Shown here piece after piece: positions 20,755-64,000 of a stretch of DNA of 64,000 bases (position 1 is its first letter; each line of letters opens with the position of its first letter). Source of the stretch: Haliotis cracherodii. Lineage: Eukaryota. The stretch is taken from assembly GCF_022045235.1 (NCBI RefSeq), contig NW_027266264.1, positions 73,098,001 through 73,162,000 of the forward strand, read 5' to 3'. Both the position numbers and the translations under genes were made by a program. Under the pieces are notes generated by a model that worked only from the letters and a program-made list of their open reading frames with translations, ran no database searches and was not told where the DNA came from.

Positions 20755-21955
20755 TTATTAATGCATTTTTATGTGAAGATAGGTATTAAATGATGCATTG
20801 TTATATGAAGATAGGTATTTAATGATGCATTGTTATATGAAGATCGGTATTAATTGTTATATGAGTATAGGTATTTATTAATGCTTAGTTATATGAAGAT
20901 AGGTATTTAATAATGTATTGTTATATGAAGATAGGTAATTATTAATGCATTGTTATATGAAGATCGGTATTAAATGATGCATTGTTGTATGAAGATAGGT
21001 ATTTAATGATGTATTGTTATATGAGTATAAGTGTTTATTAATGCATTGTTATATGAAGATAGGTATTTAATGATGCATTGTTACATGAAGATCGGTATTA
21101 AATGATGCATTGTTATATGAAGATAGGTATTTAATGATGCATTGTTATATGAAGATCGGTATCAAATGATGCTTTGTTATATGAAGATAGGTATTTAATG
21201 ATGCATTCTTATATGAAGATAGGTATTTAATGATGCATTGTTATATGAAGATCGGTATTAAATAATGCATTGTTATATGAAGATAGGTAATTATTAATGC
21301 ATTGTTATATGAAGATCGGTATTAAATGATGCATTGTTATATGAAGATAGGTAATTATTAATGCATTGTTATATGAAGATCGGTATTAAATGATGCATTG
21401 TTATATGAAGATAGGTATTTAATGATGTATTGTTATATGAGTATAGGTGTTTATTAATGCATTGTTATATGAAGATCGGTATTAAATGATGCATTGTTAT
21501 ATGAAGATAGGTATTTAATGATGCATTGTTATATGAAGATCGGTATCAAATGATGCTTTGTTATATGAAGATAGGTATTTAATGATGCATTGTTATATGA
21601 AGATAGGTATTTAATGATGCATTGTTATATGAAGATAGGTATTAAATGATGCATTGTTATATGAAGATAGGTATTTAATGATGCATTGTTATATGAAGAT
21701 CGGTATTAAATAATGTATTGTTATATGAAGATAGGTATTTAATGATGCATTGTTATATGAAGATCGGTATTAAATAATGTATTGTTATATGAAGATAGGT
21801 ATTTAATGATGCATTGGTATATGAAAATATGTATTTATTGATGCATTGTTTTATGACTATAATCATTTTGTAATGCACAGTTTATATGAAGATAGTTTTT
21901 ATTAATGCATAATTATATGAAGATAAGTATTTATTGATGAATTGTTATATGAACT
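20755..21955. repeat. AT-rich minisatellite, 32-33-bp unit ATGAAGATAGGTATTTAATGATGCATTGTTAT
   Basis: Directly visible. Confidence 0.95.
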
Positions 21956-31277: not shown

Positions 31278-32810
31278 CAATGTGGAGACAGGTGGTCATA
31301 TGGAGAAAGGTGAGGGCAGTGTGGAGAAGCAGGTGGTGAAATAGAGAAGGATGAGGCAGTGTGGAGAAGACAGGTGGTGAAATGGAGAAGGAAGGGGCAG
31401 TGTGGAGAGGCAGGTGGTGAAATGGAGAAGGGTGAGGCCAGTGTGGAGAGGCAGGTGGTGAAATGGAGAAGGGTGGGGGCAGTGTGGAGAAGACAGGTGG
31501 TGTACTTGAGAAGGATGGGGCAGTATGGAGGGGGAAGACAGATGGTGAGATGGAGAAAGGTGAGGGCAGTATGGAGGGGGAAGACAGATGGTGAGATGGA
31601 GAAGGGTGAGGGCAGTGTGGAGAAGACAGGTGGGGAGGTTGAGAAGGGTGAGGGCAGTGTGGAGAAGACAGGTGGTGAGATGGAGAAGGGTGTGGGCAGT
31701 GTGGAGAAGACAGATGGTGAGATGGAGAAGGGTGAGGGCAGTGTGGAGAAGACAGGTGGTGAAATGGAGAAGGAAGGGGCAGTGTGGAGAAGACAGGTGG
31801 GGAGGTTGAGAAGGGTGAGGGCAGTGTGGAGAAGACAGATGGTGAGATGGAGAAGGGTGTGGGCAGTGTGGAGAAGACAGATGGTGAGATGGAGAAGGGT
31901 GAGGGCAGTGTGGAGAAGACAGGTGGTGAAATGGAGAAGGAAGGGGCAGTGTGGAGAGGCAGGTGGTGAAATGGAGAAGGGTGAGGCCAGTGTGGAGAGG
32001 CAGGTGGTGAAATGGAGAAGGGTGGGGGCAGTGTGGAGAAGACAGGTGGTGTACTTGAGAAGGATGGGGCAGTATGGAGGGGGAAGACAGATGGTGAGAT
32101 GGAGAAAGGTGAGGGCAGTATGGAGGGGGAAGACAGATGGTGAGATGGAGAAGGGTGAGGGCAGTGTGGAGAAGACAGGTGGGGAGGTTGAGAAGGGTGA
32201 GGGCAGTGTGGAGAAGACAGGTGGTGAGATGGAGAAGGATGTGGCAGTGTGGAGAGGCAGGTTGTGAAATGGAGAAGGGTGAGGGCAGTGTGGAGAAGAC
32301 AGGTGGTGAGATGGAGAAGGGTGAGGGCAGTGTGGAGAAGACAGATGGTGAGATGGAGAAGGGTGGGGCAGTGTGGAGAAGACAGATGGTGAGATGGAGA
32401 AGGGTGAGGGCAGTGTGGAGAAGACAGATGGTGAGATGGAGAAGGGTGGGGCAGTGTGGAGAAGACAGATGGTGAGATGGAGAAGGGTGAGGGCAGTGTG
32501 GAGAAGACAGATGGTGAGATGGAGAAGGGTGGGGCAGTGTGGAGAAGACAGGTGGTGAGATGGAGAAGGGTGAGGGCAGTCTGGAGAAGACAGATGGTGA
32601 GATGGAGAAGGGTGAGGGCAGTGTGGAGAAGACAGATGTGAGATGGAGAAGGGTGGGGCAGTGTGGAGAAGACAGATGGTGAGATGGAGAAGGATGAGGG
32701 TAGTGTGGAGAAGACAGATGGTGAGATGGAGAAGGGTGAGGGCAGTGTGGAGAAGACAGATGGTGTACTTGAGAAGGGTGTGGAGAGACAGGTGGTGTGA
32801 TGGAAAGATG
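31278..32810. repeat. Purine-rich minisatellite, about 42-bp unit GTGTGGAGAAGACAGRTGGTGAGATGGAGAAGGGTGAGGGCA
   Basis: Directly visible; the 566-aa and 302-aa ORFs are repeat artefacts. Confidence 0.96.
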
Positions 32811-35048: not shown

Positions 35049-38000
35049 ATGGCGGGCGAGCGGACAAATCTCCTGCTCCATGGCCTGGGAACGTTGATCA
35101 TCGCGACGGCTACGATTACCTTAATGGTTGCTGTGTTCACGGACAATTGGATACAGTCCCCTGTGGAGGGGTCCGGATTCCAGAAGGCAGGTTTATGGAA
35201 GATCTGTCTGGTTAACTACGTCATACATAGAAATGTACAGACCCCTAAAGGCTTAGTTGGGTGTTACAGTTTTGCCGACCCAATTTTCTATGATGTTCAG
35301 GATTGGATACACCCCAGTAAGTATAAGACTAAATATTTCATACTGTAATTTATAAACACTTGGCAGTAACACTCTATTGATATTGCTGTGTTTCTAATGT
35401 ATGTCAGATACCTTATATCCTATTTCCGGTAACGTCAACACAGAAATCGTTACAAAAATACCGAACCTCGAAGATCCAGGCTGGAATAGGTCTTCAGCAA
35501 CCCATGCTTGCCGTAAAAGGCGACTGTGCTTGTCGTAAGATGCGACTAACGGGATAGGGTGGTCAGGCTCGCTGACATGGTTGATGAATGTCATCGGATC
35601 CAAATTACGTGGATCGATGCTCATGATGTCAATCACTGGATTGTCTGGTCCAGACCCGATTATTTACAGACCGCCGTCATATAGCTTGAATACAGCTGAG
35701 TGCGGCGTTAAACAACAAACCAACCACAAAATACCATTTATCATGATGATCGTGGTCATAATGTCGTAATAATGAGTTGTTCATTCCAACAAGCTTCTTT
35801 CTAACTTAAATAACCGCGGTAAAATATGTATTTGGTTCCTAATTGTAACCTATGTATGTTACATAGTTACATATAATTCTAAGTTTTAAACCCTTTTTTA
35901 TTTTGAACAAGTTGTTTCGAATCAAATCACTTTGGAACCGCTGCTATGACTCTGCTTGAATGTGAGGACAGTGTTCATAACAGACTTTCACATTGTTTGT
36001 TTACGTTATGGATAATCTTGTCATGAGGTCAAGCTCGTGTGTTGACTGTCATACACCAATTCAGTCTACGCATTGCTGTTATGATGCGGGAGGAATGTTA
36101 GCGTTGTTATCGTCATAGGCCATTTTCAACAATACAACTTGCTTTCGGGGAATGATGCAGCCATACTCGGGAATGGGAGGATAGTACTTGACCTGCCTCG
36201 TCAGTGTGTAATTAACCAGGATGTAGCTTACATTTCTGATAATACTCGATGCACGGAGACGGAAACCCTTATCTCTAAGGATACAAATAAACAATATTCA
36301 AACTTTTTTTTATCCTGACAATTCCTGAATAACAAAACAAAATGGTTATTTCTATTTTATCTTATTACAATTATTTATAATGGTCACCCAATTTAACGCT
36401 TTTTACATCATTTATCTGAAGCTTGCTATATGGCTCCGTTACATTGACCTTCTGTCGCCCAGCTTCAAGTTGCTACCGAAACATTTGTAGCAATGTATTT
36501 GTAGTTTGTATTTCAAAAGCCTCTTGGCCACTCATCTGTAAGTATAACATTATCAATAGTCCATGAATATGTTCAAAGTTGGCATCGCATTTCACTGCAT
36601 TTCCGTGTATTTATTCCGTATCAATATCTGTCAGTTATACTTTGGTAAATATGCCCGTTGTCCATATTTGGATTGACCGCTGTTTTCAAGTCTATATGAT
36701 GTCTCTTTGTTTTAGTGTGGCTGAAGGCAGTCAAGGGCATGTTGGTGATGTCTCTGTTCTTCAACGTCTTCAACCTGTTCTCCTCGGCCTTCTACCTGGT
36801 TCAGGGGAGGGCACATCTCCTCATCCCCATCACTGTCCTAGGCAGCATATCAAGTAAGCTCCATCCTCCTGAGTTTTCACAACTCCTGATCCTACAGCTA
36901 CCAAGCCATGCATTTTTTTTTTTTTAAATATCAAATAGTCTGTCCGTGATGCGTTTGTAATAGTTGCAATGAGTTTACACTAGGATACACGGTCGTCAAT
37001 AAGACTTTTATGTACATGTATATCACTCTCCGATAAGCAAAGTATATACATTTCAGTCAATGCACCCCAATTGTACCACCCAATCCCGCAGTCATAAAAC
37101 CTTTGACACGCCAATTCAGAAGTGTTGGAAAATAATCACTGTGGGGTTGAGACCTAATAATGTCCTTAAGATGTTACGAGTACAAGACAAGACATAATCA
37201 TGTCCTTACAATTGTACGAGTATAAGACAAGACCTAACAATGTCCTTAAAAGTTTGACCCGTGAAGATCCGGGGTAGACTAGGTCTTCAACAACCCATGC
37301 TTGCTGTAAAAGGCGACTATGCTTGTCGTAAGAGGCGACTAACTGGATCGAGTGGTCGATGCATGTCATCGATCCAAATAGCGTGGATCGATGCTCATGA
37401 GGTCAATCACTGGATTGTCTGGTCCAGGCTCGATTATTTACAGACCGCCGTCATACAGCTGGAATATTGCTGAGTGCGGCGTTAAACAACAAACCAGCCA
37501 ACCAACCTTAAAATGTTACGAGTACAAGACAAGACATAATAATGTCCATACAAGTGTACGAGTACCAGACAAGACCTAATAATGTCCTTACAATTGTACG
37601 AGTATAAGACAAGACCTAACAATGTCCTTAAAAGTTTGACCCGTGAAGATCCGGGGTAGACTAGGTCTTCAACAACCCATGCTTGCTGTAAAAGGCGACT
37701 ATGCTTGTCGTAAGAGGCGACTAACTGGATCGAGTGGTCGATGCATGTCATCGATCCAAATAGCGTGGATCGATGCTCATGAGGTCAATCACTGGATTGT
37801 CTGGTCCAGGTTCGATTATTTACAGACCGCCGTCATACAGCTGGAATATTGCTGAGTGCGGCGTTAAACAACAAACCAGCCAACCAACCTTAAAATGTTA
37901 CGAGTACAAGACAAGACATAATAATGTCCATACAAGTGTACGAGTACAAGACAAGACCTAATAATGTCCTTACAATTGTACGAGTATAAGACAAGTCCTT

Positions 38001-38483
38001 AAAATGTTACTAGTACAAGGGAGGGACATAAAGGGAGGGGTCCTATCAAACGCCCTGCGTTCCTCTGTTTACTCTTCATGGTGTCTGTAGGGGCGGTCGG
38101 GTAGCCTAGTGGTTAAAGCGTTCGCTCGTCTCGCCGAAGACCCGGGCTCGATTCCCGACATGGGTACAATGTGTGAAGCCCATTTCTGGTGTCCCCCGCC
38201 GTGATATTGCTTGAATATTGCTAAAAGCGGCTTAAAACCATACTCACTCACTCACTCGCTCATGGTGTCTGTTTCAGCGGTCATGATATCGTGTGGAACG
38301 TCCTTGTACAGGTACAGCTCGAACGACCCCTACTGGCTTCCGCTTCCTGATTCCAACCAGTTAGATTGGTCCTACTACACAAGCGTGGCTACCATATTCA
38401 TCATGATGATTGGTTCCAGCATGCACGGGATACAGGCCTTGCTTCTGTGCTGCAGTAGGGAAAAGTCAATGCGGAAATACTAA
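35049..38483 (+). CDS. Invertebrate claudin-like tetraspan (PMP22/Claudin superfamily), gene C1
   Basis: Exons 35049-35316, 36716-36853, 38278-38483 (phase 1/1, GT-AG). TM1, W...GLW..C...GC first extracellular loop (ECL1) signature, WLP.P....LDWSY second loop, four hydrophobic segments, ends RKY*. Confidence 0.88.
35467..35726 (+). mobile_element. SINE-like family S2 copy (C1 intron 1)
   Basis: S2 consensus. Confidence 0.85.
37150..38017. repeat. 382-bp tandem duplication carrying two S2 SINE copies (37256-37507, 37638-37889) inside a ~38-bp minisatellite
   Basis: Near-identical blocks offset by 382 bp. Confidence 0.92.
38090..38258 (+). mobile_element. SINE family S1 inserted at the exon 3 acceptor of C1
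   Basis: 13-bp TSD TCATGGTGTCTGT at 38076-38088 and 38260-38272. Confidence 0.92.
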
Positions 38484-38964
38484 CCGGGACAAGAGGAAGC
38501 AGTGTTGTCCAGATATTGTCTGGACCTTTGGGGAGACAATTAACACGCATAATTTCCCTATATTTCTTACTTCATGACAGGCGTGATCGTTTTTCTACCG
38601 AATTATTTTGTGGTATTTGAATAGTATTTTTAAGGGAAAATGACCCAGAAAACATCAGGGTGAAGAAACATGCAACAGAACACTGCAGATTCAGAGCATT
38701 GAAGATCGTCGCTGTAGATGCAGAACAGTCAAGACCGTCATTGTAGATGCAGAACAGCAGTGTTAGAAATAAAAAGTGCCAGTCTGCCATCAGGACCCAC
38801 CGACTTTAGAAGATGCAGGCCCACATTACAAAGCTGCAACTTTTTGTGATAAATAAATAGAGAGATAGATTTACTGCGGGCCATAAGGACCCACATAAAT
38901 TTGACACTATGGGCCCGACACGAGATCTACAAATCACAGACCTACGCACAGGCGCTCATTTCGA

Positions 38965-39652
38965 ACACTGTGGAAGATGCAGGACAGAAATGGACATTTC
39001 GTCACTGTAGATGCAGGGCAGTGAAGGTCGTGACTGTAGATGCAGGACAGTGAAGGTCGTCACCGTAGATGCAGGGCAGTGAAGGTCGTCACTGTAGATG
39101 CAGGACAGTGAAGGTCGTCACCGTAGATGCAGGGCAGTGAAGGTCGTCACTGTATATGCAGGACAGTGAAGGTCGTCACTGTATATGCAGGGCAGTGAAG
39201 GTCGTCACTGTATATGCAGGGCAGTGAAGGTCGTCACTGTATATGCAGGGCAGTGAAGGTCGTCACTGTAGATGCAGGGCAGTGAAGGTCGTCACTGTAG
39301 ATGCAGGACAGTGAAGGTCGTCACTGTAGATGCAGGGAAGTGAAGGTCGTCACTGTAGATGCAGGGCAGTGAAGGTCGTCACTGTATATGCAGGACAGTG
39401 AAGGTCGTCACTGTAGATGCAGGGTAGCGAAGGTCGTCACTGTAGATGCAGGACAGTGAAGGTCGTCACTGTAGATGCAGGACAGTGAAGGTCGTCACTG
39501 TAGATGCAGGGTAGCGAAGGTCGTCACTGTAGATGCAGGACAGTGAAGGTCGTCACTGTAGATGCAGAACAGTGAAGGTCGTCACTGTATATGCAGGACA
39601 GTGAAGGTCGTCACTGTAGATGCAGGGCAGTGAAGGTCGTCACTGTAGATGT
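38965..39652. repeat. Minisatellite, 29-bp unit CACTGTAGATGCAGGRCAGTGAAGGTCGT
   Basis: Directly visible. Confidence 0.96.
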
Positions 39653-43606: not shown

Positions 43607-45614
43607 TATTTATGTTGAACACTCGTCACTTGAGCATCAGCGCGGATCCACCAAACAAGAGTCATGGGGAATCTGAGATTCAAACCCAAGTTTGTTGTGG
43701 AGAGGAAAGTGTCGTTTCAGGCCTTGTCAGCTTTTTCAGCTTTTCAGGACGAGTTGCCTCAATACATGCTTGTTTTCCAGCGGGAAGAAAATGATAAAAG
43801 GATTGTGATCCATTTGATATTTTATTGTAAACGATTTTGTCATCTTACAAAAATAGGTATGATTAGGGAAATAAAGAAATGATATATACATCGACTGGGT
43901 ATGGGGAGAAGCACGATAGGATAAACATGCAGACAGGTATATTGAAATGCTCCTTGAAATTTCAGGCTAGAAATGCTCCTCTTAAAATTCAAAGTGGCAT
44001 TATCAAATAGGGCATAATCACCATTTTCAAAAGTAATATAACATACAAAGGACAAAGACTTAACGCTAATACCTCAATCACAATGGTCATGAAGTGATAT
44101 TTACAGGAGTTGGTATTTTCTAGAAAATAGATTTCAGAGATACAATAGTTAATTTGGAAGGAGTTACTTCCCCTTATCGTACAAAGTGGATTTATTTTTA
44201 TTCGAAGTTGTATGGAAAGGTAAAAGTAAAACCATTATTCAGTACATTGATAACCTATTTCAGTGGAAACATTGTTCTTAGTTATGAAAGATGAATATTG
44301 CAACTGCTGTAAATTTGAATTAGAAAATTGAAGCACTGAGGTAAGGGGCAGATCGATTATGCTGATGGACAATAGGAATATCCTCGGCTGATTCCGGCCA
44401 GGCTTCTTCCTCCATTACCAAGTTTCACGGAATCAAACGAGTATCAACGTGATCATCACTATAACTCAGTAGGTAACCAATCAATACGTCATCCACTACG
44501 CAGGTAGTAACGATGACACTACTTTATTAGTCAGATTTCTCAGATTAAATAAATATGTAAAGATTAAAAGTGTTTTTGAACGCCAAAAAATGATAACTAG
44601 AAACAATGCTATAATCAGTGTCAAATTATTGCAGTTAAGCTATTTGTAACTAAAACTAAACTAAAACAAGGACATAATCTTTTGGAATATACAAAACATA
44701 TGGTATGTACAATGATGCATATTCTTCTATTCTGCAGCGAATGATGAGATATTATACAAATGTACAAAACGATCCACATATATATGGAAAAGCGTTATAG
44801 CCATACTATGTTAATGAAACATCATTGAGATTTCCTCCTAAGTATAGTACTCAGAGCCTTATAATTGTTATTCATATTACTGTACTTATTATTTTTCTTA
44901 TAAACATGGCCTGCAGCATTCACACAGTTTGTCAGTGACTGCTACCTTGGCAGGTGTTTTGGAGCTTAACGTACATAACTACAGCGGAAAGGTCCCTGGC
45001 AAGAGTTGCTTCCCTTTATTCATACAATACTATTGGAACTGAAAATACTTTGACTAACCAAAGCAAAATGTATCTCGCGCATCAGCGCGTAATTATATAT
45101 CCTGAGCTTCAGTTGTTTCTATAGAAGCAGACACTGAAAAACATGCTTAGCAAATGACATTGCATAAAATAGCCAGTTCAGTAAGTGCCCATCAAGGACT
45201 ACATCAAGCACAATAAGGTAAAATCTGCAAAACCCAAAAATATATATTCGAACCTACATATTTACCAACCTGTGTTTTGTTGAAAGAGCTGCCTCTATAG
45301 GTGATATGATTTCAAAGGCCCTGATATAAGATCATGATTAGATCACGAATAACCATCAAAATATAGAAAACGATTAATTATTTCATTTCCATGAGCATTT
45401 AAGTCCTGGATGATTTCACTGATTTCTCAAGGTGACAGAAATCTGTAATCTGGTGCCAGAGTGTTGATTGGCTAATTTGTTACACTCTAAACGGCAGACC
45501 ACAATGAGGTGGCGGGAGGGTATTGTCACATATATCTCCATCCACAGTTCTTATTGTCAACGTCTGCTGGTTCAGTTCATGTCGTCTGCTCCTGCAGTTG
45601 TGTCGTCTGCTTCT

Positions 45615-48600
45615 TTAGTATCTTGTAGCGGGCTTGGACGTGAGAGACATGTTCTGTCTTCGGGCCCTGTTGTTGTCTTCCTGGTTCAGTCTCATCCACT
45701 CGACCAGCAGACACATTCCACCAAAGAGGGCGAAAAACGCAGATAGGACGGCAAAACCAAACGACCAGGAGAGGAAGTTTGAATCGGGGTGAGGCAGCCA
45801 TTGGCGGTCAGTATCAGCCTTGATACCGAACGTAATAACACTGACGCCGATAAACGCACCTGAAAAAGATCAAGATTATTATTGCATATTCCGGAAGATT
45901 AAGACAAATATTGACTTCTATTCGTGTACATGTTTTACGGCCATGCTTTGCCTTTGTGATATGTTATTGACATCAAAGAGGTTGAATACTATATTTCGTG
46001 GCTGTCATACAAACCTCGTTCTGTCAATCTACATATTTTTATATTATAAGCATCGTGAGTATACAGGTCATTATGAATTTTAACATAAATAACGGAAATT
46101 TGCTTTGAGTATTTTCATCAAATACCTATTCGGATACCATGACCCTGAAACCAACACCAGAGTCATTGTTGCTTTGTTAAATGTTTATGACAGACAGGGC
46201 ACAGTGACTCTGCAGGTGTGAAGGAGGGGACGTTCCTGGCTGGCTACTAAGCGTGAGGTTGTGAGGTGAAATGGGGTTTAACGTCGCGTCCAAGATTATT
46301 ACACTTATAAAGCGATGTGCATGCACGTGTGTGTGGCTGCTTGTACTAGTCCGGACTGATGCCGATTTGTAGTGCTAGCTCACTGAGACACCATGCCGCA
46401 GTTTAACATGAATACCCCACTCAGACACAGTATACTGACTCCGAGCCGACCAGTCCTTGTTTTAGTCCCTTAATGCCGAGCGCCAGACAGGGTAACCAAA
46501 CAAGTACCATCTTTTAACAATCAGCAGAGTTAAATGTGTAGAATATTCTCTTTCATTCCCACCAACTCCGTGTATCGATGGCCATAGGATGGGTTTGGTT
46601 TCCTTGCAGCAACATCCCGACGGAATTTATGGGTGGGCTTCTCAAATTATCACCATGTGTGAATTCGAACCTGGCTCTTGAGTGACGTGAACTACCCACC
46701 TGCTGTGAAGTTGAGGATGTAGCTGAACATGACGTATCGTTTCTCCTTGTTTGCCGGGCAGCACTTGACGAAGTACATGATGACGAAGACAAGACACACC
46801 ATCATTATTATCAGCGTAAGCACCATCAGCACTTGGATGACAAGGAGCCATGCTGAAACAGAAGAGCCGGTGAATACTCGCGTCCACATACGAGGGAACC
46901 TCGCTTGACTTGAAAACAAACATATTTACACGTAAATACAAATTATATGAATGCAGCAGAATATTAGTTAGGAATTTCTACATACTCGTGTCTCGAACAA
47001 AGGAAATGCATAATGGGTTCGATTCTCAAAGAGAACGTAGGGCGAAGATGCCTGTAACTCAAACATTTAAGCATAGACTTACGACAGTCGTAGCACTAAG
47101 ATAGCTTTGTTTGTAGTTGTTTAAGGCCGCACTCAACAATAGTACAGCTATATGAAGGCGATCTGTAAATGATCGAGTCTGGACCAGACAATCAACTGAT
47201 TGACATCAGGAGCATCGATCAACGCAATTGGGATCGATGACATGCATCAACCAAGTCAGCGAGCCTGACCACCCTATCCCGTTAGTCGCCTTTTACAGCA
47301 AGCATGGGTTGCTGAAGACCCGGTCTTGCGTATCAAACTTTAAGGAGACCAAGCGTCAAGGACTGAATGTTATGCAAACGGTAAGCTCTTCTGTGGAATA
47401 GACGCTTTAAATTAGTATGTTGTGTCAGCTTTGCATATACGAAACACCAAATCCTCATTTTAATTCCATTCTAGCAAAAGGGTTTACGAGTATCCATACC
47501 TAGAGTATAATGCACATTGAAAATACCAACATGGAATCGTGACTATACGAATCTTGCGACCAAAAACCTCTGGTTCGTGTTCAGTGTCACCATGGTCCAA
47601 TGATATCACATTATTCACAGCATACAGCGCCAGCCATGCTTGACTCATACAAAGTCAACATGGTTTCCCATATGTGGGTCACCAGGCGATGTTGTACATG
47701 TTCAGGTTTAATGCTGTGTTCAGTGACACACAATTTGAGAGACCGAAAGCATTTCCACAGTCCGTATAATTGAGATAAAATGGGTTTTTCAAGATTATTG
47801 CACTGATAATCCATCGACGTGCATTCACCTACGTGGCTGCTTGTGCTAGTTCGGACTAATGCCGATTATATAGTGCTCGCCCACTGAGATACTTTCTTGC
47901 AGTTTAACATGAATACCCCACTCAGACAGTATACTAATTTCGAGACGACCGCTCCTTGTTTTAACCCCTTAGTGCCGAGTGCCAGACAGGGTAACAACAA
48001 GTACCATCTAATAACGTCTTTTGGTATGACGCGACCGAACAACCGCTATCCGGGCTGACGCCCTACCGCTAGACCACGGAGGCGGTCCAGTTCGCATAGA
48101 GACAAGTATGGAAACAGAAGTCATCTTGACATGCTCCAAATCTCAATATAAATATCTGAGTATTCCAGTTATATCACGACGTGTCAGCTTAATGTATGGG
48201 GGAGGCTTGAAGTGAAGCAGGACTCAAATGTTTACCACTTCGGTGAAACCCACGACACATAACCAGGGCGAACCGGTATTCGAACCCACAATCATAGGTT
48301 TCTGGCGTGCCCAAGCGATGGGGGAGGGGTTATGTCTCTAACCTTAATTATATTCTAATTCTACACTGAAATTTTTTAACTGGATCCAGTTTGTAACTGA
48401 TGACTGGTAGAGCCAGCCATTGTTTCGGTCGGTTTATGGATTTTCATCCCCAACATTCAGGTGGGTAGGTGGAAAAAAAACCATTCCAATTTCAAATAGA
48501 TACATCATAAATAGTTGCGTTTTGAGGTTTCAAATTTTCAACAGGTTATAATAATAATATTTTAAATAATTTATTTACATGGATAGAGGCAGTAAGTTAG

Positions 48601-50014
48601 ACTTTTTAAACGGTTTAATTACTACTTACTTGAGGTTGGAGGAATATAACAAACACTGCTTTCCAATTTATTTATTCACATTTCAAATATTTGAGTCGGG
48701 GATTCGTAAACAAAGTTTAAAAAAAGTCTTACCATGAGAGAATGTGTATTTATTCAATCTGTACGTGTTACACCCCATAGTTGCAGTCTGGTTCTTTAGT
48801 ATCTACCAAGAATATTCAGATGTAGTTTCTAACTAAATTGTGCTCCTGACGCATCGAAAAAATTAAACTTCGGATCTGTGTAAGTAAAATCTCTGGTGTC
48901 GTAACAGGCTCCACATGGGGCTTTATCACAATCCATCACGAAGCTCTAAAGTTTTAACTTTGAACCTTTTTTGTTTATTTTGAATATAAAAACGTGACAC
49001 GAAAGTGTCCAATGTAATCTACAACACAAATATATAAACAGACGCAGGCATCGCTTCCCATTTGACATTTAACACCCACTTGTAAAATAAACACCTCAGA
49101 GGAAAACAACTGTTTAGCGGTTCCTTGTAACCAGAGCGAGGCTAATTATTTAATACAAGGTGCCGTTATAGCCATATAATACCCGAGCCAGCGTGCTACA
49201 TTTCAGGTGATATTATAGATTGAATATATACAGAACGACATCGATAAAATAAACAATTGAAAAGTTTCAAAGCCTATTTTAAAACAAAATAATTTTGTTT
49301 AACAAAATATCATATGTTAATAATCAAGAGTATAACGCGCTCCTGTTATAACCAAATATATTATGAATTATCATTCCTTTTCGTGGAATTCCTCAAATCT
49401 AAAACCGGAAATGACTTTCACTATGTAGTCGATATTTTCAACATGATTCAGGTGTGGAGTATTTTGGAACAAACACACGTGATACATCTATATACATATG
49501 TGTGTCTAAAACTAACAATTTTAAAACATATCAGCTGGAAACTATCAAAAATTTATTCACAGGTTCCTCTTGACACCAACTGTAAGCATCGCCATTTTGT
49601 TTATATTGTTGTACCTGTGACGTCACGTATCTTACCTGTGCCGTTATGCATCAAAGAAAGACACATCAGGTGTGATCAAAAGGGTGGAGAAAAAACAAAC
49701 TATAAGTGTACTGAGCACACGTATACTGTTGTCAGAATGTAACGCTTACTCGGATTTAGCCATTCGAATATACTCCTGTATTCGAACGACATCAGGCTGT
49801 GGCAACCATTGTATCGCTTCCCGAGACTGTCTTTCTCGTTGACATAGTTGTTAAAACACGCCTCCCATATTCCCAACTTTCCGAAACCTGTCCTTCTTTC
49901 CTGTAAGGCTTCTAACCAGTTCGGTGTACACATGGACACGATCAAAAACAGAAGTGCTAGACTTGTTAGTACTAATCCACATATCGCTATTTTCGTCCGA
50001 CCCCGAGACGCCAT
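45615..50014 (-). CDS. Invertebrate claudin-like tetraspan, gene C2 (proximal first exon 1b)
   Basis: Exons 50014-49750, 46852-46700, 45859-45615 (phase 1/1, GT-AG). PNW...GIWEACF...YNGC ECL1; WLLVIQVLMVL TM2; RQWLPHPDSNFLSWSFGFAVLS second loop/TM4; ends TRY*. Confidence 0.9.
46254..46518 (-). mobile_element. S4 SINE, 5'-truncated
   Basis: Reverse complement of 11900-12156. Confidence 0.8.
47105..47320 (-). mobile_element. SINE-like family S2 copy
   Basis: S2 consensus. Confidence 0.8.
47820..48087 (-). mobile_element. S4 SINE copy
   Basis: Similar to 11816-12156. Confidence 0.78.
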
Positions 50015-51419
50015 CTTGATTAGTTCAAACCTGATGGCGACAACCTACCTGGGCGAATCCACTGCTTTTTAGGGGTGCTCAGGTGTGACTCAGCAGCTAT
50101 GTCGATATATTGCTCATTGCGACTGTGCGGTTGTAAATCTGACTTGGTGAATGTTCTATTATACTTACACATATCGACCTGTGCTTATACTAGAAATAAT
50201 CCTGGTAAACGTTTGTTCGTTAGTCGCCCCTAAACAACCATCAGCTAAACATACAAACACGTGCTATTCCATGATATGCACTTCCACAGCTGCCCATAGA
50301 GCGAAATCGACACGGGAATTTTTTTTCACATTTACTTTGTATTATTTGTAATTAACATACATTGCCTGCATTGGAACGGTGCATATTAACAGTATTTCCA
50401 CTTAAATAACCCCAATTGCGTGGATCGATGCTCATGTTGTCAATCACTGGATTGTCTGGTCCAGACTCGATCATTTACAGACCGCCGTCATATAGCTGTA
50501 ATATTGCTGAGTGCGGCGTTAAACAACAAACAGACAAACGACCTTAAATGACACGCGAACACGCGTACTGCCTCTCATGAGGCTTATTCACAAAAGGATA
50601 TAATCTTTCGAACAGGGCAAATTGAAAATCGGTGATTTTCTTTAAGAGAGTTATATTTTCTCTAAAAGGAGTAGGCGAACACTTTTATTGCTGTTACAAC
50701 ACATTATTGTAGGACATCCTACATCATTTACAACGTTAAGGACTGTCTACTCCTGCTCAATTACTTTAACGCCTTACGAAAAATTTGGCCCATTTTTATT
50801 ATCGCTTCTTAGTCCCCAATGAATGAGTAGAGTTTTACGCCGCTTTTAGCAATATCACGGGCTTCACACATTGTAACCATATTGGAAATCGAACCCAGGC
50901 CTTTCGATTTAACCACTAGGCTACCCTACCTTCCTTGTTAGCTACCAGCTCTACAGAGCATGTCCTAGATATATGGCCTGGGTCTCAGCTTTATGCATAC
51001 AAAATCATTAATCCTGGAAAGCATCGTAAAATATAAGTCTGTATACATCCGCATTCGAACCACAAGTTCCGAAATTTACTTCCAGTTACTAATCCATATA
51101 TAATCCAAACACGTTTACACTCATTTTGTTAACATACGACGAAGGGATAACTGTTTACTTGGAAGAGGCTTGGTGTACAGTATTGCCACCGTTATCAGAT
51201 TGGGTAGAGTATGCACAAGTGGATTTTGAACACCCATTCGAACGCCAACTCAGACGGGATCCCCAACAGGCCAGCCAAAGTTACACGTTCTGCAACTGCT
51301 GTGAGCTTGTCTCGTGATAATCGTTTGTATCAGTATTTACCAAAACACGTGCTCCAATTGGGTTTTTTAAATGAGTACATTTTTTACCTGGTTATCTTTG
51401 TCAGTGATATACGTTTCTT

Positions 51420-53784: not shown

Positions 53785-54046
53785 GTTGGTTGGTTGGGTT
53801 AACGCTGCACTCCGCAATATTCCAGCTATATGATGGCAGTCTGTCAATAATCGCGTCTGGACCAGACAATCCAGTGATTAATATCATGAGCATCGATCCA
53901 CGCAAGTGGGATCGATGACATGCATCAACCAAGTCAGCGAGTCTGACCACCCGATCCCATTAGTCGCCTCTTACAACAAGCATTGTGGCCTTTTACACCA
54001 AGCATGGGTTGCTGAAGACCTATTCTACCCAGGATCTTCAGGGGTC
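53785..54046 (-). mobile_element. SINE-like family S2 inserted into the terminal unit of the 50/51-bp minisatellite
   Basis: Repeat-unit sequence on both sides. Confidence 0.85.
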
Positions 54047-55281
54047 TAAGTCCCCAGCACATCTTGCTGGTCTCCCTGTAGGGATTCTGAGGGATATTAA
54101 GTGCCCAGTACATCTTGCTGGTCTCCCTGTGGGGATTCTGAGGGATGGTAAGTGCCCAGTACATCTTGCTGGTCTCCCTGTGGGGATTCTGAGGGATGGT
54201 AAGTGCCCAGTACATCTTGCTGGTCTCCCTGTGGGGATTCTGAGGGATATTAAGTGCCCAGTACATCTTGCTGGTCTCCCTGTGGGGATTCTGAGGGATG
54301 GTAAGTGCTCAGTACATCTTGCTGGTCTCCCTGTGGGGATTCTGAGGGATGGTAAGTGCCCAGTACATCTTGCTGGTCTCCCTGTGGGGATTCTGAGGGA
54401 TGGTAAGTGCCCAGTACATCTTGCTGGTCTCCCTGTGGGGATTCTGAGGGATGGTAAGTGCCCAGTACATCTTGCTGGTCTCCCTGTGGGGATTCTGAGG
54501 GATGTAAGTCCCCAGTACATCTTGCTGGTCTCCCTGTGGGGATTCTGAGGGATGGTAAGTGCCCAGTACATCTTGCTGGTCTCCCTGTGGGGATTCTGAG
54601 GGATATTAAGTGCCCAGTACATCTTGCTGGTCTCCCTGTGGGGATTCTGAGGGATGGTAAGTGCCCAGTACATCTTGCTGGTCTCCCTGTGGGGATTCTG
54701 AGGGATGTAAGTCCCCAGTACATCTTGCTGGTCTCCCTGTGGGGATTCTGAGGGATGTAAGTCCCCAGTACATCTTGCTGGTCTCCCTGTGGGGATTCTG
54801 AGGGATGTAAGTCCCCAGTACATCTTGCTAGTCTCCCTGTGGGGATTCTGAGGGATGTAAGTCCCCAGTACATCTTGCTGGTCTCCCTGTGGGGATTCTG
54901 AGGGATGTAAGTCCCCAGTACATCTTGCTGGTCTCCCTGTGGGGATTCTGAGAGATGTAAGTGCCCAGTACATCTTGCTGGTCTCCCTGTGGGGATTCTG
55001 AGGGATGTAAGTCCCCAGTACATCTTGCTGGTCTCCCTGTGGGGATTCTGAGGGATGTAAGTCCCCAGTACATCTTGCTGGTCTCCCTGTGGGGATTCTG
55101 AGGGATGTAAGTCCCCAGTACATCTTGCTGGTCTCCCTGTGGGGATTCTGAGGGATGTAAGTCCCCAGTACATCTTGCTGGTCTCCCTGTGGGGATTCTG
55201 AGGGATGTAAGTGCCCAGTACATCTTGCTGGTCTCCTGTTGGGGATTCTGGGGGATGTCAAGTGCCCAGTACATCTTGCTC
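54047..55281. repeat. Minisatellite, 50/51-bp unit CCCAGTACATCTTGCTGGTCTCCCTGTGGGGATTCTGAGGGAT(G)GTAAGT(G/C)
   Basis: About 24 units; the 443/307/187-aa ORFs are artefacts. Confidence 0.97.
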
Positions 55282-56287: not shown

Positions 56288-56585
56288 GTGGGTTCAACCA
56301 GGACCACACTGGGCGATATTCAAACGAGAATATCCACCAGCAACCGTTGTACTTCTTGCCGAGATAGTCCTTGTAATAGCTCCACTGCTTGAAACATACT
56401 TCCCACAGTCCCATCTTCACAAACTGGCGTTCGGTGTACTTGTTAAAATGCTCGATCCAGTTTGGGCTGGAGAAGCCGATCATGAAACAGACAAATGTGA
56501 TGACTGTGAATATCAGCCCGAACAACGACACCAGGGATTTAACCCTGTGTGTCGCTGATTTCTTCGCCTTGTCTTCGTCCGCCAT
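56288..56585 (-). CDS. Claudin-like first coding exon (TM1 + ECL1); probable distal alternative exon 1a of gene C2
   Basis: CAAAATGGCG start; MADEDKAKK...SPNWIEH...MGLWEVCF...KDYLGKKYNGCWWIFSFEYRPVWSWLNP; phase-1 GTAAGT donor at 56287 joins in frame to exon 46852-46700. Confidence 0.85.
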
Positions 56586-56837: not shown

Positions 56838-58058
56838 ATGTATATGGGTCCAGTGTTTCAGTAATATCTCTGTATATATGGGTCCAGTGTTTCAGTAATA
56901 TCTCTATGGGTCCAGTGTTTCAGTAATATCTCTATGGGTCCAGTGTTTCAGGAATATCTCTGTATATATGGGTCCAGTGTTTCAGTAATATCTCTATGGG
57001 TCCAGTGTTTCAGTAATATCTCTATGGGTCCAGTGTTTCAGTAATATCTCAATGTGTATAGGTCCAGTGTTTCAGTAATGTATCTATGGGTCCAGTGTTT
57101 CAGGAATATCTCAATGTATATAGGTCCAGTGTTTCAGTAATATCTCAATGTATATAGGTCCAGTGTTTCAGGAATATCTCAATGTATATAGGTCCAGTGT
57201 TTCAGGAATATCTCAATGTATATAGGTCCAGTGTTTCAGTAATATCTCTGTGTATATGGGTCCAGTGTTTCAGTAATATCTCAATGTATGTAGGTCCAGT
57301 GTGTCAGTAATATCTCAATGTATATGGATCCAATGTTTCAGTAATATCTCTATGCGCCAAGTGTGTCAGTAATATCTCAGTGTATAGGGGTCCAGTGTGT
57401 CAGTGATATCTCTATGGGTCCAGTGTGTCAGTAATATCTCTGTGTATAGGGGTCCAGTGTTGGGTCCAGTGCGTCAGTAATATCTCAACGTATATGGATC
57501 TAGTGTATCAGTAATATCTAAACATATATGGATCTAGTTTTTCAGTAATATCTCAATGTATATGGGTCCAGTGTGTCAGTAATATCTCTATGGGTCCAGT
57601 GTTTCAGTAACATCTCTATGTATATGGATCCAATGTTTCAGTAATATCTCAACGTATATGGATCTAGTGTATCAGTAATATCTCAACATATATCTAGTGT
57701 TTCAGTAATATCTCATTGTATATGGGTTCAGTGTGTCAGTGATATCTCTATGGGTCCAATGTTTCAGTTATATCTCGATTGGTCCAGTGTGTGTCAGTGA
57801 TATCTCTGTGGGTCCAGTGTGTCAGTAATATCTCTATGTATATGGATCCAATGTTTCAGTGATATCTCTATGGGTCCAGTGTTTCAGTAATATCTCATTG
57901 TATATGGGTCCAGTGTGTCAGTGATATCTCTATGGGTCCAGTGTGTCAGTAATATCCTTCATTGTATATGGGTCCAGTGTGTCAGTGATATCTCTATGGG
58001 TCCAGTGTATCAGTGATATCTCTGTGTATATGGGTCCAGTGTTTCAGTAATATCTATA
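56838..58058. repeat. Minisatellite, 28-34-bp unit GGGTCCAGTGTTTCAGTAATATCTC(TAT/AATGTATAT), between divergent claudin starts
   Basis: Directly visible. Confidence 0.95.
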
Positions 58059-58506: not shown

Positions 58507-61500
58507 ATGGCGACTCAAACGCTTTTCAAAGTTGGCTTCTTCTGTGCTATTACAGCCTTCCTGTTGATGTTTCTGGCCTTTGCTACACCATATTGGTACA
58601 AATCATGGACCCGTGTTCACAGTCCGTTCTCCAACATCGGGTTATGGCACGTTTGTCTTGCAGGGTACATCCAGCCCAAGGACCCCAACATGAAGTCCTA
58701 TGTCGGCTGTTGGTGGATCCACTCCTCCGAGTTCAGCCAAGTCGCTAATCAAATTCAACCATGTAAGTATTCTTACAGTTATAACGACATATATGTTTAT
58801 TCGTGTAACACTAATCGGCGATCTTCATGATTACACCTGTAATCAACAGATAAAGGCATTTTCACAATGTTTACCTGTGCAGGTAACTTCCGGTTTTGAA
58901 GTTAGTGACACTGATTATCATGATTATAGTATGTCCGTGAAATACAGCGGGCCCAATGTTGATAATTAAACATCTAAGATATATTGGGGTAGTACTTGTA
59001 CGGCATGCCGTAATTAATATAAATTAGCATGAAAAGCCTGCCAGTCAAAGGGATACTTTTAGGCGATCATGCTGTAGGCTCATGTTATCAACCACTGCTT
59101 GGTTTGTCTAGACAGAACATGTTTTTTATAGCCTACTGGTGATCATGGTGATAGCTTCAATCTTGATTACTGGCATAAACCAACATAAACCAACACACAC
59201 TCACTCAATAACTATAACCTCAATCGACCGTTTCTGTTTAGTTTGTTGTTTAACGCCGCAGTCACCAATATTCCAGCTATATGATGGCGGTCTGTATATA
59301 ATCGAACTTGGGCAAGACAATCCTGTGATTGACATCACGAGCATTGATCAACGCAATTGGGATAAGATGACATTCACCCGATCCCATTAGTTGCCTCTTT
59401 CGGCAAGCATAATCGCCCTTTAAGGCAAGCATGAGTTGCTGAAGACTTATTCCACCCCAGATCTTCACGGGTTTGACCGCCTCCATGGTCTAGTGGTAGA
59501 GTGTCCACCCAGTGAGCAGAATGTCCTGGATTTGATCATACCAAAAGACGTTAAAATCTGGTACTCGTTGTTACCCTGCCTGGCGCACAGCCTTAAGGGG
59601 CAAAAAAAAGGACTGGTCAGTTTTGAGTCAGTGTACTGAGTGGGGTATTCATGTTAAACTGTGGCAAGGTATTTCAGTGGGCTAGGAATAAAAAATTGGC
59701 ATTAGTCAGAACTAACACAAGCAGCCACACAAACACACATATAAGTTCAATACGCAACGCAACATTAAACCCCATTTTACCTCACCTATGTCATGTATGT
59801 CAATCTCTGGATTGTCTGGTCCAGACTCAATTATTTATAGACCACCGTCATATAGCTGGAATATTGCTGAGTGCGGCATTAAACAACAAACATACAAATA
59901 TAACCTTTCTCTTCATAACGGACTGGTAATTCAACTTACATACAGGGGGTGGTGGGGTAGCCCTGTAGTCAAAGCGTTAGCTGGTCACACCGAAGACTCG
60001 GATTTGATTCCCTAAATGGGTAGAATCCCAATTCGGGTGTTCCCCACCATGATATTGCTGTAATATTGCTAAACGAGACGTAAACCTTTTGACCTATACT
60101 CACTCACTCACTCACTCACTCACTCGCTCACCCTCCATGAGCAGTCCCTAAGTAAAAGAAAAGTTTTGTTTTATTAAAATGGATTTGTTCCTGTAGCATA
60201 TTCACACATGTGTAGTTTACAAAGTTGGGACGCTGAACACAACTGGTACTGCATACAGGAATTTGGTGTACTTTTAACAAAGAAGTCTTATGATGGCTTT
60301 CTTCTCCTACCTTGCAGCATGGTTTCGTGGAATCCAAGCTCTGTCCATCTTCACACTGGTAGCAGACCTGGTGGGAGGCCTCCTGCTGTTGTTTTACCTG
60401 CCGGACATCATGTACAAGAAGTTGTACGCCGGACGCAGAGTGAGCATCCTCTTTGCTGGAAGCATCATGGAGTTAATTGCAGGTATACACCACTCTTACT
60501 AACTACCTGTGTTTTCGTATCAGGTCTTTGAAAGGCATTTAGAAGTGATTCACAAAAGGAAGAGAATATATGGATGTCAACTTCTTTATTATGAGGAACA
60601 CAACTTTTCGGAGTATATGCTTACTCCTTTATCATAAAGCCCCCGTTACACTATAAAGAACTTTCATAATAAAGAAGTTGACATCCATATATTCTCTTCC
60701 CTTACTGTGTTTTGTCTAAACAAGGCTCAATAGTCTATAAGCATTTCATTTGCTATGGGTGGCACTGGTGGCCCAATCATCTAAGGTGCTACAATTTGCT
60801 GTGCTGAGTTGTGTCCCTTAGGATTCAAGTAACCTAAGATTATGGGTCCAATCCCAGATTTACCTTAGTAATGATTCTTGGTTTCCAGTTCTATATCAAC
60901 CTAAACGTCTAAGGCTTACTTCACTTTGAGCTTTCGTTCCCCATCAAGCAGATGTCCATGATGGGGAAAGAAAGCTCAAAGTGATGTAAGCCTTGCAGAT
61001 GTCCTTGAGACCTGTGAAGATCCGGGGTAGAATAGGTCTTCAGCAACCCATGCTTGCAATAAAAAGCGACTATGCTTGTTGTAAGAGGCAAGGATTGGGT
61101 AGAATAGGTCTTCAGCAACCCATGCTTGCAATAAAAAGCGACTATGCTTGTTGTAAGAGGCAAGGATTGGGTGGTCAGGTTCGCTGACTTGGTTGATGCA
61201 TGTCATCGTATCCGAATTGTGTGGGCTGATGCTCATTATGTCAATCACTGGATTGTCTGGTCCAGGCTCTGTTATTTACAGACTGCCGTCATGTAGCTGG
61301 AATAATGGTGAGTGCAGTGTTAAACAGCAAACAAAATAAACCAAAAGATGTCCATGATATACTGGTAACTGAAATACTGTTCACAGCAGTGTTAAACATC
61401 TCACTCAGTATGAAAGGTTTCCTCCCTTTGCTGTGTCGCAATCCGCCGATTGCCATCAAACATCAGCATGTAATTAGAACTTTAAAGTCTGATGACAATT

Positions 61501-62655
61501 GCAAAGTTAACTCAACAACTCTCAGAGGTGCCAACCGTTATGATTTGGGTGGAATCATTATGATCAAGTATGTGATATACGTTATGAATTTTGAAACCAT
61601 TGCCAGTAATTTACACCAGTTTTACCACGCTACTGCATTGTCATAATTATATCGTACTGAAAGAGGAATCAGGCCTATTCCCCCTTGTGTCTTTGCAATC
61701 TCTGAACCAAGGAGAAGGTGAACATGCTAGGGCATGACATGTTTTATAATGCCAGAAACTCTACATTGTGGGAATGGTACACTTTACATTATTGCAATAC
61801 TTTTGCATAGTCAAGATGCCACCAATAGACACCCATAGGTCTCATCTAACAATCTCCCATTGCAGCATTTCTGGTGTTCCTCATCGCCCCCAATAGACAC
61901 CCATAGGTCTTATTTAACAATCTCCCATTGCAGCATTTCTGGTGTTCCTCATCGCCCCCAATAGACACCAATAGGTCTTATTTAACAATCTCCCATTGCA
62001 GCATTTCTGGTGTTCCTCATCGCCTCCAATAGACACTCATAGGTCTGATATAACAATCTCCCATTGCAGCATTTCTGGTGTTCCTCATCGCCTCCAATAG
62101 ACACTCATAGGTCTGATTTAACAATCTCCCATTGCAGCATTTCTGATGTTCCTCATCGCATCCAATAGACACCCATAGGTCTGATCTAAGATCTCCCATT
62201 GCAGCATTTCTGATGTTCCTCATCGCGTCCAATAGACACCCATAGGTCTGATCTAAGATCTCCCATTGCAGCATTTCTGATGTTCCTCATCGCGTCCAAT
62301 AGACACCCATAGGTCTGATCTAACAATCTCCCATTGCAGCATTTCTGGTGTTCCTCATCGACTCCAATAGACACCCATAGGTCTGATATAATGATCTCCC
62401 ATTGCAGCATTTCTGGTGTTCCTCATCGCCCTGGTGTTTGCGGAGATGTCCAATGACCCGACCTGGATGCCGAGACCGTGGATGAACTACCTGTCCTGGA
62501 GCTACGGTCTGTGTGTCCTGTCCGGCTTCTTTTCCGCCTTCGCTGGCATGTTCACCTTCATCATGGGCCTCATCTTCAGGGACAAGGAGCGCGGCATCAT
62601 CGGCAGCGACACACTGGACACTCGACTGGAGAAGATGAAGCAGAAGGAGATCGAG
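58507..62655 (+). CDS. Invertebrate claudin-like tetraspan, gene C3 (3' end probably in a further exon)
   Basis: Exons 58507-58762, 60318-60482, 62408-62655 (phase 1/1). TPYW...IGLWHVCL...YVGCWW; WFRGIQAL; WMPRPWMNYLSWSYGLCVLSGFF; probable donor GAG|GTATGG at 62656, otherwise the frame reads on to a stop at 62760. Confidence 0.88.
59232..59473 (-). mobile_element. SINE-like family S2 copy, back-to-back with an S4 copy
   Basis: S2 consensus. Confidence 0.8.
59475..59787 (+). mobile_element. S4 SINE copy
   Basis: GACCGCCTCCATGGTCTAGTGG head and Meta-like domain. Confidence 0.78.
59945..60126 (+). mobile_element. SINE family S1, diverged copy
   Basis: S1 layout with (CACT)n tail. Confidence 0.75.
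60558..60700. repeat. Perfect 37-bp inverted repeat enclosing a degenerate hammerhead-like core; probable Penelope pLTR remnant
   Basis: 60558-60594 is the exact reverse complement of 60664-60700. Confidence 0.8.
61009..61342 (+). mobile_element. SINE-like family S2 with internal ~72-bp duplication of the head
   Basis: TSD AGATGTCC(T/A)TGA. Confidence 0.85.
61820..62430 (+). repeat. 67/68-bp tandem repeat whose unit is the intron 2/exon 3 junction of claudin C3 (9 acceptor copies)
   Basis: TCTCCCATTGCAG|CATTTCTG(G/A)TGTTCCTCATCG with TGCAG at 61861, 61929, 61997, 62065, 62133, 62200, 62267, 62335 and 62403. Confidence 0.95.
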
Positions 62656-64000
62656 GTATGGCCTGAAAACTTTACAGCCTCCTTATTAAGTAGTGCTGTC
62701 TCCCGGGATTCTAGGATGGAATATTCCTTGTATCCTATGCTTGTCGTAAAAGGTGACTAAATGATTAGGGTTATCAGGCTCAATTACTTGATTGCTTTCC
62801 CAACTCTCGGGACGGGACGTTGCTATTATTGTCAACCACTGGTTTATCACTTGCTTATTTACAGACTGCCGTGGCCTGGCTGGAATATTGCTGACTGCAG
62901 TGTTTTAGATCAAATAAACAAACTGGTGACTAAGGGCACCTAAATGAGGTGCTTCATGTGCAGCGTTTATCCCTTAGTCATGCGAAGATCCACTGGCTGG
63001 GGGTGAATCCTGCTGAAATATTGCTGATGTGACTTTATTTAACTTACTTGAATCCTAGATTCAACCTGATTATGATCCTGACATTTGTGCTTGTTTTTTT
63101 GGTCAAAGTTGTAAACAATTGTAATCTGTTATTTTGGGCTTTCCTGTAACATTGATATGACAGAACTTATCCTATCTCACACTATGCATATCTTCCTTCT
63201 TCTTTCAATCCTTATGCAGAAATGGGCTTGAACAAAGTTTCCAACTTCTAAAAACAATTCACCTGAACACATCCCAGCATCACCATGGTCACCACCCAAA
63301 CAAATGGCTCATACAATGTAATACTTCTGCCACATCATTCTCTATCTCATCACCACCCTGTGGAGACGGGTATTGAGTTTTTGAGAATACATTTTTTTTT
63401 GTAGGCCACGTCCTCAATTCTGTCAACTTTTATAACACTAACTTGAAGAGGCAAAGGGTACAGAACATGAAAAACACCCAGCCTGCAGACATAAACTACT
63501 GATCCTCATGATCATTGTTGTGAGTGTTGCGGCCATTGTTATGAAGACAGTGTTCCAACCTCACCAAGGAAGCTTTCAATATGTTCCTACGCAAATGCCA
63601 CAAGCGTGATGTTGACCACTTGTCGAAGTCCAAGGACGTTGAACATACTAAAGACCGATGGTGATGGGATTGCTCTCACACCTCAGACAAGGATTGTCGT
63701 GCTTCCTCAGAGAGTCGCCGTTCCATTAATCCATGCTCTCGGGATCATTTGTCAAATTATCAACATTTCAAGGATTGATGTTCCAGATCTACGAGTTGCC
63801 CCTCTCTACACTCAACACTCACCAGATTAGGAGTGTCGCTCTACTGATCGAACAGGAGCTCCTGCTCGACATGACAATTGCTGTCATTCAAAGGATAATT
63901 CCTATTCAGATTTTGCTGATCGGTTGTTGACTTCTACAATTTATTCAGATCATCGGCATTGGGGGGATAATCCCCGTTCCTACTCCACGAACCCTCCTCA

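Follow-up and report, generated by a model that had tools for sequence, protein, structure and literature searches.

Nine tandem 3' splice sites where intron 2 meets exon 3 in an abalone claudin-like gene

Splice-site repeats and the abalone array

Minisatellite-like duplications of intron-exon boundaries are described from amphioxus under the name 'mirages', in which AG/GT borders are kept and splicing is reported as normal (PMC3087553). The BflGb6 mirage combines an intron's 3' end with the 5' portion of the exon downstream, and further amphioxus examples are given for BflGb9 and Adh3 (PMC3087553) and for PGBD5 and troponin C (PMC3902484). Their reported unit size is 10–160 bp; length polymorphism and somatic instability, the latter for Adh3, are reported features of these lancelet arrays. 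In the human F7 gene, a 37-bp VNTR of intron 7 (IVS7) carries the real splice site in its boundary unit, as one of 5–9 identical sites in competition, and only the exon-adjacent site is used, the pseudo-sites being described as functional but out-competed (PMC1557585). The 25-bp VNTR in intron 18 of human ABCA7 also includes a splice site, and retention of one unit is reported to produce a frameshift and premature stop (PMC5954066).

The window analysed here is the whole 64,000-nt stretch of contig NW_027266264.1 of Haliotis cracherodii. A mirage-type tandem array of 9 x 67/68 bp (nt 61818–62430, + strand) lies across the boundary of intron 2 and exon 3 of a claudin-like gene (C3), as delimited by TRF, unit alignment and DNA contigs from sequencing runs X1 and X5. 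TRF reports a period of 68, 9.0 copies, 95% matches and a score of 1037 over this span. Each unit joins 44–45 nt of intron end to 23 nt of exon 3 start, and the AGs of the nine acceptors end at nt 61865, 61933, 62001, 62069, 62137, 62204, 62271, 62339 and 62407, at successive spacings of 68, 68, 68, 68, 67, 67, 68 and 68. With the TRF result and all nine AGs located, the tandem 3' splice sites proposed in a sequence-only reading of this DNA are borne out. Eight of them are decoys (nt 61821–62362, + strand; splice joins and alignment), in which 23 nt of exon start and then an in-frame TAG come after the AG. The ninth is the authentic intron end (nt 62363–62407, + strand), with a CTGAT branch-like motif, a pyrimidine tract and the AG ending at nt 62407, in agreement with the RefSeq model and RNA contigs.

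The units show 0–8 pairwise differences (copies 6 and 7 are identical), and adjacent units are more similar than distant ones (Mantel p 0.04). Ten of 68 alignment columns vary among the nine copies, none of them within the 13-nt acceptor block, which is kept in 9/9 copies; exon 3 continues only from the ninth. The same earlier reading held that some decoys possess a better branch motif than the true site. This stands as far as the motifs themselves are concerned, as CTAAC is found in copies 1 and 8 and TTAAC in copies 2, 3 and 5, with the A at -17, but the decoys are not clearly better, because the CTGAT of the true site (also present in copies 4–8) lies at -22, within the branch-point distance range of 19–37 nt given in PMC10078293.

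The host gene encodes XP_071109160.1 of H. cracherodii (361 aa), which maps onto five exons by tblastn, and the RefSeq model takes the ninth acceptor. Coding exon 1 (nt 58507–58762, + strand; tblastn with aa 1–85, Pfam) runs from the ATG to a GTAAGT donor. Exon 2 (nt 60318–60482, + strand; 165 nt) has a phase-1 donor, CAG/GTATAC, and exon 3 (nt 62408–62655, + strand; 248 nt) is internal with the donor GAG/GTATGG, both being placed by tblastn and RNA contigs. Exons 4 and 5 (+ strand; tblastn) fall outside the window, at approximately 66938–67210 and 68565–68708 in extended coordinates. Exon 3 matches the H. cracherodii protein at 100% and is single-copy, and in three other Haliotis species the protein has 91–99% identity, with no interruption where exon 2 meets exon 3. 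The Pfam family Claudin_2 (PF13903) matches exon 1 alone with E 9.7e-07 and 29.2 bits against a cut-off of 29.1, and exon 3 with E 0.0022; the profile search gave no Claudin_2 match to exon 2. The PF13903 match places the gene in the PMP-22/EMP/MP20/claudin superfamily, and the precomputed PF13903 annotation is present on 28/28 homologs.

The structure is not new, and belongs to a described class of repeat. The abalone array shares three structural and splicing features of an acceptor-type mirage: its units stand head to tail and straddle the boundary between an intron and an exon in a real gene; every copy has an AG, the copies are intronic and the authentic exon stands at the array edge; and mRNA is regularly spliced at the authentic copy in 5/5 RNA runs, as judged from contigs, in which rare forms can be lost. 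Like the amphioxus mirages as described, it has unit variants in runs of neighbours and a distinct boundary unit; its layout is that of BflGb6, with the unit inside the 10–160 bp range. It differs from them in its setting, a gastropod claudin-like gene with 9 copies of 67/68 bp, found under two species labels. Both human VNTRs likewise include a splice site, and F7, like the abalone gene, uses the one next to the exon; the F7 repeat, however, is on the donor side and was analysed by mutagenesis, whereas the abalone array is on the acceptor side and known from sequence and RNA contigs. ABCA7 is also a donor-side case, reported with 12–427 units, a measured length effect and a disease link. No molluscan mirage was found in the literature searched, which excluded most subscription journals. 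The array extends to a mollusc, under two species labels, a class of repeat known from lancelets and humans, and as it stands is of little consequence.

The array in DNA reads and acceptor use in RNA

Eight of 21 listed sequencing runs were examined over nt 62300–62700, which takes in the last 1.6 units and exon 3. Organism A is the presumed own species of the window and organism B is a second species label. Words of the segment 61800–62700 were present at 62–68% in four DNA runs of organism A, at 35–39% in seven DNA runs of organism B, and at 23–33% in the RNA-type runs (28–33% in X12–X16). In X1, a DNA run of organism A from an animal other than the one assembled, a contig spans the unit junction at nt 62331–62422 with 0 differences and with 32 and 60 letters on its two sides, and the contigs bear the reference unit variants. 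In X5, a DNA run of organism B, exon 3 has a single difference in 248 bases, and three listed unit types pass from exon-start letters into intron-end letters, with 20–30 letters on the short side, slightly below the 31-letter bridging rule; a loose end also leaves the exon start and re-enters the unit. X1 and X5 carry different unit variants. Relative to the exon, the contigs of the unit add up to about 6.6x the depth in X1 and about 4.8x in X5, figures that are no measure of copy number. The array is therefore found in short-read contigs of both runs, the copy number of nine being the figure of the assembly.

The array is real and is common to two species labels with different variants. That it arose as an assembly artefact is scarcely conceivable: its units differ among themselves, their variants and a unit junction recur in X1 and three unit types in X5, and the four organism A DNA runs hold 62–68% of the words against 28–33% in X12–X16. 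A dispersed mobile element was considered and is ruled out, as the unit matches nothing but this array in the genome, with 8/8 matches in the 1.18-Gb assembly falling inside it. A scan of metagenome DNA for the acceptor pattern, made to find the orthologous locus in more distant abalones, returned 0 stretches.

Six RNA-type runs were examined, of which five, from four studies, gave contigs; in the small-RNA run X18, 0 reads matched. X12 and X13 are from one study of organism A, X14 and X15 from two studies of organism B, and X17 from a fourth study. Four of the five are RNA by guess, although their spliced joins behave like RNA, and as far as can be told none comes from the assembled animal itself. 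In all five runs with exon 3 contigs, exon 2 is joined to nt 62408, and the letters of exon 2 form the loose end preceding nt 62401; exon 4 follows nt 62656 in 5/5. X12, X13 and X15 each have one unbranched contig passing from exon 2 through 62408 to exon 4, at depths of 280, 245 and 35, while X17 has the exon 2 join and the exon 4 join on separate contigs of depth 2 and 6. No unit-bearing contigs were recovered from X12, X13, X15 or X17. In X14 the main path from exon 2 through 62408 to exon 4 has a depth of 295 on entry and 265 on exit, via a shared 31-mer. Splicing at the last copy is the dominant form of the RNA. The alternative put forward in the sequence-only reading, that splicing passes over eight near-identical decoys, fits all RNA examined, and the spliceosome can evidently bypass eight such upstream acceptors for the one attached to a full exon.

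X14 is the single run with RNA from the units. Four small contigs of depth 2.3–5.9, about 2% of the main path and unphased, cover one unit, and by count of differences they match one of the three listed unit types of X5, the type that resembles the terminal unit. The other two X5 types and intron 3 are absent from the X14 contigs (Poisson 0.016, 0.033 and 0.15), and intron 3 is not covered by any RNA contig in the five runs. Because these other sequences are missing, the unit contigs would be unlikely to derive from unspliced RNA or DNA if the animal of X14 has the array of X5. They hint weakly at a small leak to the penultimate (n-1) acceptor in X14, with the limits that the depth is error-prone, that X14 and X5 are different animals, and that contig cleaning can drop parallel paths. 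A further constraint is that the 7 nt at the end of exon 2 (nt 60476–60482) recur as the final 7 nt of the intron (nt 62401–62407). For this reason the spliced junction and every acceptor copy share a 30–31-mer, and phase between exon 2 and the decoys cannot be established from short reads or k=31 graphs. Since contigs lose rare forms and NMD would lower the level of decoy products, the figure of about 2% is a rough steady-state ceiling in the samples examined and not a splicing rate; true decoy use may lie above the level seen. Annotators and read-mappers should also note the nine mapping positions of the 23 nt with which exon 3 begins.

Joining the donor at nt 60482 to any of the eight upstream AGs gives A-F-L-(V/M)-F-L-I-(A/D)-(P/S)-N-R-H-(P/Q/S)-stop. 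The TAG ends 41 nt past the AG in 8/8 decoys, and the frame is open only from the ninth acceptor, so that the in-frame stops predicted for all eight decoys are confirmed in every computed join. To judge by where the Pfam match lies and by the hydrophobic stretch, truncation would fall in the third membrane helix. Under the usual junction rule, a stop well upstream of an exon junction leads to NMD. The decoy stops precede the exon 3 donor by 275–749 nt and exon 3 is followed by two more introns, and for these reasons decoy products would be NMD substrates, which agrees with the expectation drawn earlier from the sequence. At the other end of exon 3, the frame stays open for 34 codons beyond the donor (nt 62656–62760), and an mRNA that kept intron 3 would encode a shorter protein whose tail is different.

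Possible origins and roles of the array

We consider it probable (roughly 0.8) that this is a tolerated minisatellite, with mRNA spliced at the last copy, probably since no other copy leads into the whole exon. A 68-bp piece of the intron 2/exon 3 boundary was probably first duplicated by slippage at a GCC microhomology, which is shared between the left flank (nt 61818–61820, + strand) and the exon end of the unit (nt 62428–62430) and is of a type from which slippage can set off a duplication. Subsequent expansion would have been that of an ordinary minisatellite, whose turnover leaves neighbouring units alike, and the window is rich in such repeats, with long tandem arrays occupying 11.6 kb (18%) of it and TRF giving 54 rows. 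The selector of the ninth site would be cross-exon definition, in which the last copy is the one best placed to pair with the donor of exon 3, since the exon is 248 nt long from that copy and 316–790 nt from the decoys, between long introns of 1925 and 4283 nt. A small leak to the decoys would be removed by NMD, and the array itself is probably neutral.

Cross-exon proximity is supported for long introns (PMC9225289), but the human data reported there also indicate that the upstream 3' site is generally preferred, an effect that exon definition only lessens. On that account exon definition alone is not an obvious reason for near-exclusive use of the ninth site, and exon content probably contributes to the choice as well. 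By a crude motif count, purine-rich enhancers number 0 in the 100 nt after each of the eight decoys and 1 after the true site, and exon 3 has 5 matches, too few for use. Selection maintaining the decoy acceptors was also considered and is not significant, the chance of ten variable columns missing the 13-nt block being 0.10 and the longest invariant run having p 0.21; the alignment gives no sign of excess conservation of the decoy signals. Persistence of the array under two species labels with different variants is allowed, but not predicted, by neutrality.

Set against the tolerated minisatellite is the idea, raised in the sequence-only reading, that array length is a heritable dial. Splicing to penultimate or earlier decoys would then lead to the TAG and to NMD, as in a leaky poison isoform of the ABCA7 kind, and longer or different alleles would lower claudin. 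The sequence would permit this, as the AG is intact in all eight decoys, their in-frame stops precede the next junction by 275–749 nt, and they are predicted to be more single-stranded than the true site. The X14 unit contigs are also better accounted for by splicing to the n-1 acceptor than by unspliced RNA, if that animal has the array of X5. By analogy, ABCA7, for which single-unit retention and length-dependent isoforms are reported (PMC5954066), could serve as a precedent both for the weak one-unit leak of X14 and for the dial. Unit RNA was, however, seen in one of five runs, unphased and at error-prone depths of 2.3–5.9; it was absent at depths of 245–280 in the presumed own species of the window, and a leak of 2% would be noise rather than regulation. 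The dial thus finds no support in these RNA data, with unit-bearing RNA absent from four of the five runs and at about 2% in the other, and we regard it as unlikely. Still less probable is its fuller form, in which an acceptor minisatellite shared by two abalone species yields a penultimate-acceptor poison isoform, its length or unit make-up tuning claudin dosage by NMD. If the extent of decoy use followed copy number, the array would act as a heritable dial on the expression of a junction-type membrane protein, and a length-tuned poison isoform would be an invertebrate, acceptor-side counterpart of the ABCA7 VNTR. It would also offer a natural allelic series with which to weigh exon definition against an upstream-first choice of 3' splice site in invertebrates.

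Two further readings are poorer fits. The unit has an internal AG|GT, TAG|GTCT(G/T)A, 41 nt past the AG in every decoy, and pairing of a decoy AG with it would create a 41-nt mini-exon, a poison exon or an intermediate of intron gain along a route proposed in the amphioxus paper (PMC3087553). Such an exon would be out of frame and end in TAG, the pseudo-donor has 4–5 of 9 matches to the U1 consensus against 6–8 for the three real donors of the gene examined, and no such joint occurs in the eight runs examined over the last 1.6 units, all of which makes this route very doubtful. Marginally less credible again is the suggestion that RNA structure hides the decoys and leaves the true site open. 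Local folding at three window sizes, expressed as the unpaired value of each acceptor block, predicts the reverse, the true block (-13 to -1) being the least unpaired of the nine, at 0.43/0.37/0.40 against 0.44–0.79 for the decoys.

Neighbouring genes and repeats

At least four claudin-like (PF13903-type) genes are clustered in the window, at nt 35076–38516 (+), 45576–50026 (-), 56289–56582 (-) and 58507–62655 (+), and the end of exon 1 falls at a common position in them (..W-x-x-P|S). The last two stand head to head, their starts separated by a 1.2-kb minisatellite of 34-bp units (nt 56839–58055). In the host gene, exon 4 (approximately 66938–67210, extended coordinates) codes for short repeats, GYPSS/GYPST; GYRDHSVGGPPSVG. 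The number of these coding repeats varies among Haliotis species, whose proteins are 361–375 aa in length.

Thirteen long arrays were inspected in the window, and overlap with a claudin exon was found in the acceptor array alone, claudin genes being the only ones mapped. Seven more minisatellites of 0.65–1.7 kb are present (nt 1–1458, 8304–10018, 20761–21953, 31286–32780, 38999–39651, 54040–55280 and 56839–58055), none of which overlaps a claudin exon match. An element marked by a 22-bp doubled motif is dispersed over more than ten places, for example at nt 1577, 16665, 37297, 61025–61172 and 62735, and is itself tandemly duplicated at nt 37150–38007 (382 bp x 2.2) and at nt 61025–61172 (72 bp x 2, 100%).
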